Virus record (IMG/VR): IMGVR_UViG_2872152978_000001
Coordinates: 1 to 25,455 of that record
Source of the DNA: a virus
Lineage: Duplodnaviria > Heunggongvirae > Uroviricota > Caudoviricetes
Direction: 5' to 3' (one strand)
Length of the DNA: 25,455 bases
The notes under the pieces: model-generated
Database searches by the model: none
The model's input: the letters and a program-made list of their open reading frames with translations, nothing else
What the model was told of the DNA's origin: nothing
Translations under genes and position numbers: made by a program
Shown here: positions 14,703-19,601 of the stretch, piece by piece
Layout of the letters: every line of letters starts with the position of its first letter
How positions within the stretch are numbered: the stretch's first letter is position 1

Positions 14703-15458
14703 CTGAGCCGGAGATTCCGGATCAACGGCAATGCTGACCACCGTCTCTTCCTGTGGTGGATTCTGTTGCTGGTGGGCGTGAGGCAGCAGCGCAAGATTTT
14801 TTGTGCGCTGCTTCAGTATGCTGGTAGCGGTCTGCTCTCCCGGCACGATGTCGCTTTCACGGTACATTGAGCGGATTTTTTCCGCACGCAACCCCAGCGA
14901 ACGACGTAATACCGCTTCCGGTAGCGCGTCCGCCACCTGATTGCGGACCGCCTACCAGGATAATTCAGCCAGAGATAATTCACGCTCCTGCGTACCGCTT
15001 ATTGCGTGACCGATGACGTCAATCATCCATGCTGACAGGTTTTGATGAGCAAGTTGCTCGAGTGATTCGGATGTCTGGTCACGCAACTGGTTGTCGCAGT
15101 GCCAGCACAACACCATTGCGCCGGTACCATAACGGTGAATGACGGTTTCGCTGTGATGATAATCGCCGTGTGGCCACTGGCAGGATTTAATATGGCGCAA
15201 CAGCCAGTCAGACAATGCACCAGCACCACCAGCAGCACGAATCACCCGTGCGTTACTGAAAAACGGCAGCAATGTTTTGTCTTCCACTAGCGGCTGGCGA
15301 ACGGCAGGAACGACCCCGGACGGCAGATTACGCATGCTTTTCGGTTCCGGCTCCACCAGTACCCGGGTATTGTGGAATACCGGCATGGATTCACGGCCTG
15401 GCTTAAGGACCACCAGCCCGAGTTCCGGAACCAGAACAGGTCGAAGTAATACCCGCAC
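14703..15458 (-). pseudogene. lambdoid prophage protein (YdfU-like, probable DUF968), in-frame amber codon and 3' truncation by IS600
   Basis: MRVLLRPVLVPELGLVVLKPGRE...CQWPHGDYHHSETVIHRYGTGAMVLCWHCDNQLRDQTSE resembles Qin-prophage YdfU as I recall it; TAG at 14949–14951 with the frame continuing to the IS600 end, where the first in-frame stop is the IS terminal TGA. Confidence 0.5.
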
Positions 15459-15459
15459 A

Positions 15460-15738
15460 TTACCTCCAGATCCGTTGCTGGAATGTGCAGGACGGACGCG
15501 GTGGCCGTTCGGAATAAGGGAGCCTGACGAAGATTATCCAGTGACGATAATCGAGACTGAGGGCTTTCTTAATCTCGTATCCGTGTCTGCGGTAGCGCTG
15601 AATCAGCCATTCAGCCTGTTCTTCGGTGCAGGGGTCGTGCTGATACCAGTCAGATTTGAATGCATGAGAACGCCGCCCGTGCCTGCTGGCAGGGGCGGCA
15701 GAGTTATCCGAATTGTAAAATTTGGTATCGTGCGCCAT
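15460..15738 (-). CDS. hypothetical prophage protein (in the rem-like position between hokD and the ydfU-like gene)
   Basis: 92-aa ORF from the internal Met; the longer six-frame ORF reads through the upstream terminator hairpin and was trimmed; its stop sits 1 nt before the next gene's start. Confidence 0.45.
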   Translation of the reverse strand: MAHDTKFYNSDNSAAPASRHGRRSHAFKSDWYQHDPCTEEQAEWLIQRYRRHGYEIKKALSLDYRHWIIFVRLPYSERPPRPSCTFQQRIWR

Positions 15739-15808
15739 CTGTTTTCTCTGCTGGCGCAGCAGGTGCCAGTTGTTCAGGCTGACGGATGGATTGTAAACCA
15801 GAACGACC

Positions 15809-15837
15809 AGAAAAAACAAAACCCGCCGAAGCGGGTT
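15809..15837 (-). terminator. rho-independent terminator downstream of hokD
   Basis: AACCCGC-TTCG-GCGGGTT hairpin followed on the minus strand by TTGTTTTTTC. Confidence 0.6.
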
Positions 15838-15905
15838 AAGTGCGGGTGCGTTGAGGATGCCTGACACATCAGCGGTGGCGAGGGATTTCTCCCCCGCCGG
15901 GTCTC

Positions 15906-16061
15906 TTACTCCTCAGGTTCGTAAGCTGTGAAGACAGCGACCTCCGTCTGGCCGGTTCGGATTCGTACCTCGCAGAGGTCTTTCCTCGTTACCAGTGCCG
16001 TCACTATGACGGTTAAACAGATGACGATAAGGGCGATTAACATCGCCTTTTGCTGCTTCAT
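15906..16061 (-). CDS. hokD: Hok/Gef-family type I toxin (HokD/RelF-like)
   Basis: 51-aa MKQQKAMLIALIVICLTVIVTALVTRKDLCEVRIRTGQTEVAVFTAYEPEE matches HokD as recalled; AAGGAG RBS upstream; the six-frame ORF has a mok-like N-terminal extension. Confidence 0.85.
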   Translation of the reverse strand: MKQQKAMLIALIVICLTVIVTALVTRKDLCEVRIRTGQTEVAVFTAYEPEE

Positions 16062-16320
16062 AGCCTGCTTCTCCTTGCCTTTCGGCACGTAAGAGGCTAA
16101 CCTACATGTGTTCAGCATGGATTGAGCCTCAGATTAATGTTAAGCGTCTTGCAGGACGCGTAATGTTAACTGGGGCTTTTCTCTATCTGCCTTTTGGTGT
16201 TCATGCCTGAGACGGATAGCCTCAAGCACCCGCAGTCATTCTACTTAACTAAGATTTCCCTGCAAACCGTTTTTGTCCGGCACAGTAAATATCCAACTAA
16301 ACCAATAGCGTTCGCTGTAT

Positions 16321-16500
16321 TTACCGCCAGTATTCAATGCACATGACCGCCATGAACACCCCTAAAAAAAGGGCATTTATATGTCCAAACATTAATATCA
16401 AAACATCAATTTTTTCCATATACCTTGCTGTGAAGATGATGGGCATACATGATGCGAACAACCAGAACGCAACAAACAAAAACTGCAATGCGTTTTTCAT
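16321..16500 (-). CDS. small hydrophobic membrane protein (59 aa), function unknown
   Basis: MKNALQFLFVAFWLFASCMPIIFTARYMEKIDVLILMFGHINALFLGVFMAVMCIEYWR; strong SD-like AGGGGG just upstream of the ATG at 16500; two predicted hydrophobic helices; AT-rich. Confidence 0.4.
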   Translation of the reverse strand: MKNALQFLFVAFWLFASCMPIIFTARYMEKIDVLILMFGHINALFLGVFMAVMCIEYWR

Positions 16501-16712
16501 TATTCCCCCTACAATCAATGTGCAATAACATTTAAACACACCTCAATTTGGCCGGACATATAAATATCTAAACCAGAAAAAATCACTTACATAGCGTTAC
16601 AAACTCTTTAGTCTAAATACTCATCGTAAAACATTCCCCATACTTATCAGTCCGTTCCGCGCCAGGTAGCTTATTGCCTTATCTGGCAACCTATAATCAG
16701 GTTTCCGCTTTT

Positions 16713-17135
16713 TCAGTTGGCTGGTCGTTTAACCGACATAGTTAACCCATTAATCTGGTTGCCGGATGCTGGTGGATTTTCGCGTTTTAGTTGTTCATAA
16801 AAGTGCACAGCTTTAACCAGTTCTTCTGATGTAACCGGGACTGGTGGGGCAGTGAATAAGGCCTGAATTTCATAGTTCGGCCTGTCGTTACAATCCTCTT
16901 TTTTCGGTACATATTTCCAGTCACCAACCCACAACTCCCCCTGAGAGTCCATAACACCTTTTTTCACGTAGCGATATCGCCACGCTATCGGCTCTGCTTC
17001 CAGCGATGCCCGTGCAATTTTGAATAACTCGCCCTCTACTCGCGCCATCCCTGAATTGGGGTGGCATTTCGTAATCGCTATTTTTAATTTGGCTTCTTCG
17101 ATTAATTGTTCTTTTGTTAATTCAGTCATTTTCAT
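16713..17135 (-). CDS. hypothetical protein (140 aa), function unknown
   Basis: Intact ORF MKMTELTKEQLIEEAKLKIAITK...PIAWRYRYVKKGVMDSQGELWVGDWKYVP...; no family recognised with confidence. Confidence 0.45.
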   Translation of the reverse strand: MKMTELTKEQLIEEAKLKIAITKCHPNSGMARVEGELFKIARASLEAEPIAWRYRYVKKGVMDSQGELWVGDWKYVPKKEDCNDRPNYEIQALFTAPPVPVTSEELVKAVHFYEQLKRENPPASGNQINGLTMSVKRPAN

Positions 17136-17219
17136 TACCGCCCTTTCAGTAAGCGTACAGCCTGAACCGTCTGGTCAGAATCTGACGAATTAGACAAAGT
17201 GGTGTCCACCAAATAAGTA

Positions 17220-17621
17220 GTGGGAACCAAAGTGTCAGATATGCAGAAAAATGTGAATCCCGGCAGGCGAAAAGGCTGCCCTAATTATCCTCCCGAATTT
17301 AAACAGCAGCTCGTTGCTGCCTCCTGTGAACCCGGGATATCCATCTCAAAACTTGCTCTTGAAAATGGCATTAACGCCAATCTGTTGTTCAAATGGCGAC
17401 AACAATGGCGCGAGGGAAAGCTGCTATTACCTTCTTCAGAGAGCCCCCAGCTACTTCCTGTGACTCTCGATGCAGCTGCCGAACAGCCAGAATCGCTCGC
17501 AGAGGATCCGGAAACCCTCAGTATCAGCTGTGAGGTAACGTTCCGGCACGGGACGCTCCGCTTCAATGGCAATGTCAGCGAAAAGCTCCTGACTCTGCTG
17601 ATACAGGAACTGAAGCGATGA
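17220..17621 (+). CDS. IS66-family accessory protein TnpA (OrfA)
   Basis: 133-aa ORF recognised as IS66 OrfA; may start at the GTG at 17220 or the ATG at 17241. Confidence 0.8.
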   Translation: MGTKVSDMQKNVNPGRRKGCPNYPPEFKQQLVAASCEPGISISKLALENGINANLLFKWRQQWREGKLLLPSSESPQLLPVTLDAAAEQPESLAEDPETLSISCEVTFRHGTLRFNGNVSEKLLTLLIQELKR

Positions 17622-17965
17622 TCCCGTTACCTTCCGGGACCAAAATTTGGCTGGTTGCCGGTATCACCGATATGAGAAATGGCTTCAACGGCCTGGCGGC
17701 AAAGGTGCAGACGACGCTGAAAGACGATCCGATGTCAGGTCACGTTTTTATCTTCCGTGGGCGTAATGGCAGTCAGGTAAAGCTCCTCTGGTCTACCGGC
17801 GATGGACTGTGTCTGCTGACCAAACGGCTGGAGCGCGGCCGCTTCGCCTGGCCGTCAGCCCGGGATGGCAAAGTGTTCCTCACACCGGCACAGCTGGCGA
17901 TGCTCCTTGAAGGTATCGACTGGCGGCAGCCTAAAAGACTGCTTACGTCCCTGACTATGTTGTAA
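17618..17965 (+). CDS. IS66-family TnpB (OrfB)
   Basis: 115-aa ORF overlapping OrfA by ATGA; recognised as IS66 OrfB. Confidence 0.85.
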   Translation: MIPLPSGTKIWLVAGITDMRNGFNGLAAKVQTTLKDDPMSGHVFIFRGRNGSQVKLLWSTGDGLCLLTKRLERGRFAWPSARDGKVFLTPAQLAMLLEGIDWRQPKRLLTSLTML

Positions 17966-18013
17966 GCCTCTTTATCCTGGTCGACGCTGAATGAGCCTGG
18001 TAATATACCCGGT

Positions 18014-19552
18014 ATGAGCAGCTCACTTCCTGACGATATCAATGCACTGAAACGTCTCCTTGCCGAACAGGAGGCGCTGAACCGTGCCCTGCTGGAAAAG
18101 CTGAACGAGCGTGAACGCGAAATAGACCATCTGCAGGCACAGCTGGATAAGCTGCGCCGGATGAACTTCGGCAGCCGCTCCGAAAAAGTCTCCCGTCGTA
18201 TCGCACAGATGGAAGCTGACCTGAAGGCACTTCAGAAAGAAAGTGATACCCTTACCGGTCGGGTTGACGACCCGGCCGTGCAGCGCCCGCTGCGTCAAAC
18301 CCGCACCCGCAAACCGTTCCCCGAATCACTCCCCCGCGATGAAAAACGGCTGCTGCCGGCAGCGTCATGCTGCCCGGAATGTGGAGGCTCACTGAGCTAT
18401 CCGGGTGAGGATGCCGCCGAACAGCTGGAGTTGATGCGCAGCGTCTTCCGGGTTATCCGGACTGTACGTGAAAAGCATGCCTGTACTCAGTGCGATGCCA
18501 TCGTGCAGGCCCCCGCGCCTTCACGGCCCATCGAGCGGGGTATCGCAGGACCGGGGCTGCTGGCCCGCGTGCTGATCTCAAAGTATGCAGAGCACACCCC
18601 GCTGTACCGCCAGTCTGAAATGTACGGCCGCCAGGGCGTGGAGCTGAGTCGTTCACTGCTGTCGGGCTGGGTGGATGCATGCTGCCGGCTACTGTCACCG
18701 CTGGAAGAAGCGCTTCAGGACTATGTGCTGACTGACGGTAAGCTCCATGCTGATGACACGCCTGTCCCGGTGCTGTTGCCAGGCAATAAGAAAACGAAGA
18801 CCGGGCGGTTATGGACCTACGTTCGTGACGACCGTAACGCCGGGTCAACGCTGGCGCCGGCGGTGTGGTTCGCTTACAGCCCGGACAGAAAAGGCATCCA
18901 TCCGCAGACCCATCTTGCGGGGTTCAGTGGTGTACTGCAGGCGGATGCATACGCCGGGTTCAACGAGCTGTACCGGGATGGCCGGATAACGGAAGCCGCC
19001 TGTTGGGCTCACGCCCGCCGTAAAATCCACGATGTGCACGTTCGCACCCCGTCAGCCCTGACGGAGGAAGCGCTGAAACGGATCGGCGAACTGTACGCCA
19101 TCGAGGCAGAGATAAGGGGAATGACGGCGGAGCAGCGCCTTGCCGAACGTCAGTTGAAAACGAAACCGCTGCTGAAATCCCTGGAAAGCTGGCTGCGTGA
19201 AAAGATGAAAACCCTGTCGCGACACTCAGAACTGGCGAAAGCGTTCGCATACGCCCTGAACCAGTGGCCGGCGCTGACGTACTATGCAGATGATGGCTGG
19301 GCTGAGGCGGACAATAACATCGCTGAAAATGCGTTGCGGATGGTCAGTCTGGGCCGCAAAAACTACCTGTTCTTCGGTTCGGATCATGGAGGAGAGCGGG
19401 GAGCGCTGCTGTACAGCCTGATCGGGACGTGCAAACTGAACGGAGTGGAGCCAGAAAGCTACCTCCGCTATGTCCTTGACGTCATAGCCGACTGGCCGAT
19501 AAACCGGGTCGGCGAACTGCTCCCCTGGCGCGTAGCACTGCCGACTGAATAA
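18014..19552 (+). CDS. IS66-family transposase TnpC
   Basis: 512-aa ORF with N-terminal coiled coil, CxxC zinc motifs and the IS66 DDE core. Confidence 0.9.
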
Positions 19553-19601
19553 CACATCCCCGTCAATACGGTTCTTGCTGCACGCTTACTGCTAAATTTA
19601 A

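Follow-up and report, generated by a model that had tools for sequence, protein, structure and literature searches.

What lies between hokD and an IS66-family element in a decaying lambdoid prophage, and with which of its neighbours, if either, does it belong? The DNA that raises this question (the window, 25,455 nt) is positions 1 to 25,455 of the IMG/VR virus record IMGVR_UViG_2872152978_000001. An earlier note, made from its sequence alone, had marked out an uncharacterised two-gene module there, composed of a 59-aa open reading frame (ORF) at 16321–16500 and a 140-aa ORF at 16713–17135; both are indeed ATG ORFs in the same orientation, on the minus strand. The shorter, here called ORF59, is as the note had it an uncharacterised hydrophobic protein adjoining hokD, and very probably the product of a real protein-coding gene, judging from sequence comparison. 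Its constant companion appears to be hok/sok and not the 140-aa ORF. We lean, though not strongly, to the reading that ORF59 is a genuine gene for a two-helix membrane protein, an accessory factor carried with hok/sok, to which the 140-aa ORF is unrelated. If expressed, ORF59 would represent an undescribed family of small membrane proteins in two lineages, missed by RefSeq annotation.

ORF59 and its type-B paralogue

ORF59 (16321–16500, minus strand) encodes the predicted 59-aa membrane protein MKNALQFLFVAFWLFASCMPIIFTARYMEKIDVLILMFGHINALFLGVFMAVMCIEYWR, a form that we call type A; it was taken from the list of ATG ORFs and is backed by a paralogue. A GGGGG Shine-Dalgarno (SD) sequence, seen already in the earlier note, lies 4 nt before the ATG (16506–16510, minus strand). 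Among 82 loci this is the allele in 73, and seven have AGGAGG. The window holds many ORFs of 30–70 codons, so that the length of ORF59 is not by itself beyond chance; the case for coding rests on comparison with the paralogue.

An exhaustive HMMER scan of 1.84 billion representatives returned near-identical copies of ORF59 together with a single distinct protein, also of 59 aa and 44% identical (E 4.8e-10). This protein, type B, is MRKILMYLCISIWIVISCVPIILTSEYLTEASIMALMFGHANALCIGVFISIIYIECWR. The genes of the two types align codon for codon with zero indels at 59% nucleotide identity, and the proportions of sites that differ between them are 0.34 for nonsynonymous (pN) and 0.70 for synonymous changes (pS) (Fisher p 4e-4, in a single pairwise comparison with synonymous sites nearly saturated); in shifted frames the contrast is weaker or gone. 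The likeness is confined to the gene and its immediate downstream edge: over the 100 nt upstream, identity is no better than random (27%), and downstream the resemblance ends ∼40 nt past the stop. Residues invariant between the types are L5, L8, W13, S17, C18, P20, I21, I22, T24 and L36, followed by F38, G39, N42, A43, L44, E56, W58 and R59.

The site of type B is between ttcA and uspF, where 1045 of 5426 complete Escherichia coli genomes carry it, APEC O1, NU14 and ST131 included (an example from ST131 is L091 4130–4430; others are L007, L008 and L291), and it is annotated by neither PGAP nor RefSeq. Its surroundings are a degraded Rac-like prophage remnant of B2 E. coli in which the neighbouring genes are all pseudogenes, namely fragments of an integrase and of DUF1627 and a frameshifted metal ABC permease gene. 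Type A is found in ∼28% and type B in ∼19% of complete E. coli genomes. Full-length type-A copies from IMG/VR, metagenomes and genomes are intact without exception (154 of 154). A motif scan on codons 18–44, which does not pre-select for an intact C-terminus, found 115 of 117 copies intact, the other two being one frameshifted at a run of seven T residues and one cut by a contig end.

Beyond these two types, word-index searches matched ORF59 only to near-identical E. coli and Shigella copies and to some frameshifted variants. No third lineage was found by two rounds of word-index search, by HMMER, by pattern scans of GTDB, IMG/VR and metagenomes or by two DNA motif scans built on the invariant residues, the pattern scans depending on known motifs such that very divergent relatives could escape them. 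ORF59 is very probably restricted to E. coli and Shigella prophages.

Most frameshifted ORF59 variants in the databases originate at the run of seven T residues (16364–16370 on the coding strand, codons 44–47); those at this run (P0019, P0020, P0023–P0025 and L241) could reflect sequencing errors or real slippage. In an 87-aa database protein (P0166) the C-terminus of a Rac-type integrase (…QMVYEIYGMW) runs on into residue 13 and the remainder of type-B ORF59, which implies that some strains have a further deletion joining the integrase remnant directly to ORF59. One type-B locus (L008) is on NZ_CP141085.1, a 385-kb ‘plasmid’ of E. coli KE48 that bears the chromosomal genes ogt, dgcM, zntB, dbpA, ttcA, uspF, ompN and ldhA and seems less a plasmid than a piece of chromosome or an assembly error. 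On the opposite strand, an antisense 63-aa ORF (16337–16528, plus strand; ‘hornerin’ in one phage record) was rejected as a candidate gene, being not conserved in type B. Its identification with SMP7 of CFT073, a 192-nt small ORF reported to be restricted to E. coli and S. flexneri (10.64898/2026.09.28.754932), was rejected too: the length is the same, but SMP7 maps to the microcin/F1C island and not to the ORF59 locus.

Neighbours of ORF59

The homology block that different prophages with type A have in common starts in the tail of the upstream gene, spans ORF59 and reaches into hok. Of the 104 distinct type-A contexts that extend far enough downstream, 102 have the hok promoter and leader after ORF59. 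An intact 51-aa hok gene is found 256–259 nt after the ORF59 stop in 85 of the 104, and in a further 16 the hok promoter and leader are kept and the sequence breaks at window position ∼16060, with a 3.3-kb insert (the ATCC 8739 type). Next to type B, what remains of the 3′ half of hok begins 55 nt downstream of the stop; it is recognisable by tblastn (Hok residues 24–44, E 4.5e-5), contains an in-frame stop and has 80.6% nucleotide identity over 62 nt to window 15993–15932. The hok promoter, the leader, sok and the first ∼20 codons are gone from this locus, and tblastn found no trace beside type B of PHROG 660, the family of the 140-aa ORF. Since both lineages stand directly upstream of hok sequence and no PHROG-660 gene accompanies type B, the conserved unit is ORF59 plus hok/sok, not ORF59 plus the 140-aa ORF. 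The association is one-way, in that hok/sok occurs without ORF59 in 933W, Rac-SA53 and PPompW phages. No ORF59-like neighbour is mentioned in a recent survey of the diversity and localisation of Hok proteins (10.1101/2025.08.07.668861).

The hok/mok/sok locus of the window is complete, with hok coding sequence (CDS), mok leader, Sok-target leader, promoter and terminator, and is homologous to the annotated mokW/hokW/sokW. Reading along the minus strand, a sigma-70-type promoter for the hok mRNA (16238–16266; TTTGCA, a 17-nt spacer, TAGAAT) immediately precedes an Rfam match to the hok mRNA leader (16056–16231; RF01794, 114 bits, E 1e-26), which includes the mok start at 16118 and the Sok-complementary region. 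The 51-aa hokD CDS follows at 15906–16061 (HOK_GEF, PF01848, E 3e-23, and called by PGAP), with an in-frame mok extension to 16118, and the terminator scan placed an intrinsic terminator after hok at 15820–15837. The Sok antisense RNA gene, assigned by homology to sokW of 933W, is on the plus strand at ∼16110–16180. A weak isrK-like Rfam match at 15816–15897 (minus strand; 27 bits against a gathering score of 50) overlaps the hok terminator and is probably a mere similarity between terminators.

In ATCC 8739 the hok leader is parted from the CDS by an insert of ∼3.3 kb (relB-relE-ydfV-flxA-ydfW-intK′) at their junction, where 16 bp overlap (16060–16075), and K-12 retains the hok CDS side only. 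Insertion at this junction explains the leaderless hokD of K-12, and the locus in the window shows the ancestral arrangement that gave rise to it.

On its other side ORF59 is preceded by the 140-aa ORF (16713–17135, minus strand, 140 aa as read), which matches phrog_660 (E 6.3e-47), with residues 1–139 against profile positions 1–133 of 193; the C-terminal part of the profile that stays unmatched is the one for the tail, which is deleted and frameshifted here. The true start is likely 17129, which would give 138 aa, in view of the PGAP call of a 138-aa hypothetical protein and of the homologue consensus ‘MT.ITKE’. Its 568 PHROG-660 homologues are in enterobacterial prophages and have no Pfam domain. 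The 140-aa protein itself has no Pfam or NCBIfam family match, no solved relative was found for it, and its AlphaFold model is weak (predicted local distance difference test, pLDDT, 54). The Ead/Ea22-like family (PF13935), to which PHROG 660 has distant links, gave no match for the window protein and matched only one of 18 PHROG-660 members (1.7e-4), within the variable N-terminal part.

By alignment the PHROG-660 family is mosaic, with a variable N-terminal helical part, an invariant core that includes WRYRYVKKG (AEPVAWRYRYVKKG…GDWKYVP.KEDCNDRP.YEIQALF…FYEQ.KRENPP), a segment VETGAWKDAVDWVL… and a tail, …NPPASGNQVSELTMWVKRLVSQLKKAQPDCKLPEKAMDYLKRNGLISVEDVLR, that only the long forms possess. 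Both the conserved core and the nin-region position beside Ea22-like, DUF4406 and DUF977 genes that are usual for the family are present in the window copy, but it lacks 30 internal residues, deleted between two NPP repeats, and its last ∼30 residues, lost through a 4-bp difference from an intact allele that shifts the frame and ends the protein at …VKRPAN. An out-of-frame remnant of the lost tail, …SQLKKRKPDYRLPDKAISYLARNGLISMGNVLR followed by a stop, was traced by DNA alignment and translation at 16622–16712 (minus strand), with the ancestral stop of the gene at 16624–16622; protein alignment with forms of 201–208 aa supports the assignment.

Across 83 loci the gene upstream of ORF59 takes several forms (an intact 171-aa gene in 33, a 328-aa gene in four, the truncated 138/140-aa gene in 22, the rest mostly frameshifted) and is disrupted or truncated in more than half; its PGAP label in ATCC 8739 and JJ1887 is ‘frameshifted; internal stop’. 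The 140-aa ORF thus reads as a degenerating copy of a mosaic phage gene that is unrelated to ORF59, and the two-gene module does not hold up: its upstream member varies from locus to locus and leaves no trace beside type B, whereas ORF59 is contiguous with hok in 102 of 104 contexts. The earlier note had held that absence or disruption in close relatives would tell against its two ORFs. Disruption and variation are what we found for the 140-aa ORF, truncated in the window itself, and not for ORF59.

The spacers, too, shrink on inspection. The earlier note had set the pair in an AT-rich segment with long non-coding spacers. The composition was rightly described, with 36.8% GC in 16275–16625 against 49.7% for the whole window, and 37.8% for ORF59 against 45–49% for neighbouring genes. 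The spacers were not, since 16622–16712 is the PHROG-660 tail remnant and 16056–16266 holds the hok promoter and the hok/mok/sok leader, so that 16130, where the note had its module begin, falls inside the hok/sok locus. Truly intergenic DNA around ORF59 amounts to ∼121 nt upstream (16501–16621, minus strand, 32% GC, from the ancestral stop of the upstream gene to ORF59) and ∼55 nt downstream. The minus-strand order in the window is the truncated PHROG-660 gene, the 121-nt spacer, ORF59, ∼55 nt, the hok promoter and hok/mok/sok.

The window as a whole is an IS-riddled piece of a Qin-like prophage; its exact copy of ORF59 is present in Shigella flexneri chromosomes, and the nearest complete record is that of the ipaH-bearing strain FDAARGOS_944. 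In that uninterrupted relative the minus strand leads from replication genes through DUF977, DUF4406 and an Ea22-like gene to a 138-aa hypothetical gene; an unannotated gap follows, and then come hokD, a 92-aa hypothetical gene, DUF968, RusA and Q. This is the nin (early-right) region, read on the minus strand; in the window it belongs to a Qin-like lambdoid prophage in decay, probably one resident in S. flexneri. In the window the IS66-family element (17150–19589, plus strand, ends GTAAGCG…/…CGCTTAC) is inserted 14 bp upstream of the ATG of the 140-aa ORF, where, by comparison with the uninterrupted relative, ∼64 bp of intergenic DNA (L001 10251–10314) are gone and no target-site duplication is seen. 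The element separates the PHROG-660 gene from the upstream Ea22-like gene and from the early-right operon.

Product and possible roles

The ORF59 product is strongly hydrophobic, as the earlier note had said (grand average of hydropathy, GRAVY, 1.2). The topology prediction that the note had proposed yields a two-helix hairpin: the AlphaFold2 (AF2) model has helices at residues 2–24 and 30–58 (pLDDT 72), and hydropathy agrees. Conserved polar residues cluster near the hairpin loop (S17-C18-x-P20…T24 and F38-G39-x-x-N42); in type B the loop is acidic and the N-terminus basic.

The earlier note could name no family for either protein. This remains true of ORF59, for which Pfam, PHROG, NCBIfam and PADLOC profiles gave no match at E ≤ 1, and is mistaken for the 140-aa protein. 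The searches by hidden Markov model and by structure that the note had suggested for both thus placed only the latter; a sequence search of the PDB found no match for ORF59, and comparison of its hairpin with BFVD structures gave nothing significant (best E 0.5). The note had also suggested a superinfection-exclusion or immunity protein; both ideas are speculative, and PADLOC defence models matched neither ORF at E ≤ 1. A class II holin or pinholin was considered on account of the two helices and rejected: the C-terminal tail after the helices is only four residues (EYWR), no holin family of Pfam or PHROG is matched, and the gene lies in the nin region between the PHROG-660 gene and hok, far from the holin–lysozyme cassette of the relative.

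How might such a gene be expressed? A scan of 15800–17300 found no sigma-70-like promoter or terminator belonging to ORF59 on either strand, only those of hok, and detected neither signal in the 16501–16621 spacer. Since ORF59 has no detectable promoter of its own, its translation, for which the ribosome-binding site is strong, would most likely depend on transcripts of the phage early-right operon that read through into it. The 59-aa product would lie in the inner membrane as a hairpin of helices, with the N- and C-termini probably cytoplasmic and the short acidic loop periplasmic. There it may act as a phage accessory (‘moron’-like) membrane factor and not as a type I toxin with an antisense RNA of its own. 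The likeness to phage morons and to small membrane proteins of cryptic prophages (e.g. YdfD of Qin) lies in its being a short accessory gene in a lambdoid early-right/nin region, with GC below that of its neighbours, not needed for phage functions and still present in defective prophages. A classical moron brings a promoter and a terminator with it, whereas neither was detected for ORF59, which also has no PHROG relationship. ORF59 is best filed as a new small family among prophage-borne small membrane proteins, and the 140-aa ORF as an ordinary truncated member of PHROG 660; the adjacency of ORF59 and hok is the sole modestly surprising element.

Granted that the gene is real, we put the chance that its product is an accessory factor independent of Hok a little below even. 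A modulator of Hok, or an immunity protein, is a less likely role, a toxin in its own right an improbable one, and some other role slightly more improbable again.

Several observations weigh against the reading of ORF59 as a real accessory gene carried with hok/sok. With no promoter found and the IS66 element cutting the region off from the early operon, the window copy may be silent or poorly expressed. At every locus inspected ORF59 is left uncalled by RefSeq and PGAP, and we found no expression or proteomic evidence for it; the exact protein is already listed by some sources as ‘membrane protein’ or ‘hypothetical protein’. Polymorphisms within types number 12 nonsynonymous to one synonymous, which fits neutrality (binomial p 0.24). 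The nonsynonymous changes are conservative; a within-type dN/dS was set aside, the changes being too few to inform, and lends no support to current purifying selection. Variants frameshifted at the T run do occur in databases, and the selection test described above has just two types to compare. The link with hok, for its part, may be an inherited adjacency without functional meaning: ORF59 is intact where hok is deleted (type B) or 3.3 kb away (ATCC 8739 type), and hok is present without it in the phages named above.

The missing annotation, the nonsynonymous polymorphisms, the frameshifted variants and the lack of a family, a promoter or expression data would all suit a non-functional ORF59, a frame open by chance or in decay, carried along passively with hok/sok in AT-rich intergenic DNA. 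We judge this improbable in view of the paralogue, found at the same length and at E 5e-10 despite a DNA identity of just 59%, an upstream flank that defies alignment and a downstream likeness that ends after ∼40 nt. The synonymous excess is moreover specific to the ORF59 frame (p 4e-4), the strong SD is conserved, and in both lineages ORF59 has stayed intact amid pseudogenised neighbours.

The accessory-factor reading has also to be set against toxicity, the earlier note having suggested a second type I toxin. Part of that suggestion stands: ORF59 has the generic trait of such toxins, a small (<60 aa) hydrophobic membrane peptide, and it is very hydrophobic, narrowly distributed, AT-rich, unannotated, prophage-borne and adjacent to another type I toxin. 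Hok/Gef proteins (PF01848) are likewise hydrophobic inner-membrane peptides of ∼50–60 aa, prophage-borne, narrowly distributed in enterobacteria and often unannotated. However, there is no sequence similarity between them and ORF59, which has two predicted helices where Hok has one helix and a periplasmic tail, and no mok-like leader ORF, Sok-like RNA or fold-back mRNA was detected for ORF59.

GhoT and OrtT offer an architectural parallel. They are 57-aa peptides with two transmembrane helices, and OrtT is an orphan without an adjacent antitoxin. ORF59 shares with them the size class and two hydrophobic helices joined by a short loop, a likeness of architecture only, and its type B, like OrtT, apparently has no adjacent antitoxin. 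Neither the GhoT_OrtT nor the HOK_GEF profile matches ORF59 at E ≤ 1, in a search that returned hokD at 3e-23, and no GhoS-like gene adjoins it.

At the RNA level, one feature speaks for a toxin. A 12-nt perfect inverted repeat pairs 16554–16565, in the 5′ untranslated (UTR) spacer, with 16375–16386, in codons 39–42 of ORF59; it arose by chance in 18 of 2000 shuffles (p ∼0.009), and three natural polymorphisms within it all preserve pairing via G·U. Long-range pairing occurs in toxin mRNAs, of which the repeat is reminiscent. The predicted minimum-free-energy fold, however, makes no use of the repeat, type B has no equivalent of it, and the SD appears open to ribosomes. Folding z-scores of the ORF59 mRNA are −2.2 for type A and −0.25 for type B, the upstream flanks being unalignable, and no significant mRNA structure was seen to be conserved across the types. 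On the plus strand of 15800–17300 no promoter-like or terminator-like site was found, by consensus scans that can miss weak promoters, and 16270–16700 has no Rfam match at E ≤ 1, sok being the sole RNA family matched nearby. A type I system with its own antisense RNA was rejected on these grounds, the consensus scans having shown no antisense promoter or terminator and the Rfam search no RNA family besides sok. Add the lack of a match to any Pfam toxin family and the upkeep of an intact copy in more than 1000 B2 genomes without a recognisable partner, and a membrane toxin, whether of type I, its antisense RNA having gone unseen, or a two-helix orphan that works like GhoT/OrtT, becomes the most doubtful of the alternatives weighed here.

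The fixed position of ORF59 just upstream of hok in both lineages raises the further question of whether a protein modulates killing by Hok. ORF59 could be the functional partner of Hok, modulating or neutralising it at the inner membrane, either as an immunity factor made from early phage transcripts that averts premature killing by the phage lytic cycle or by other hok loci, or as a co-factor that aids Hok. We regard this as unlikely, if less so than a toxin or a non-functional frame. The two diverged lineages both lie directly upstream of hok sequences, dependence is one-way (ORF59 is always beside hok, and hok is often in other contexts), both products are inner-membrane peptides, by prediction in the case of ORF59, and an intact type B after loss of hok would suit an anti-addiction role against other hok loci. 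Yet the adjacency in two lineages may stem from one ancestral arrangement, and ORF59 persists where hok has been deleted or displaced. Well-studied hok/sok loci (plasmid R1, 933W) also work without an ORF59-like gene, which counts against a partnership.

The boldest form of this idea is that ORF59 and hok/sok make up an undescribed two-component membrane cassette of lambdoid prophages in which a two-helix peptide controls Hok, as anti-Hok immunity or as an enhancer. We consider it a long shot. To our knowledge the hok toxin system is regulated by RNA only; were the cassette real, control of this toxin would gain a protein component, and the orphan copy of B2 strains would be an anti-addiction or anti-phage factor.

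Minor features downstream of hok

The ORF listed as 135 aa (15460–15867) probably corresponds to the 92-aa phrog_1212 gene found in the PGAP annotation of relatives, at 15460–15738 (minus strand); it is labelled ‘toxin to Rem’ in one phage record. The DUF968 (ydfU-like) gene at 14952–15458 (minus strand) has been reduced to 168 codons by an adjoining IS3-family element.

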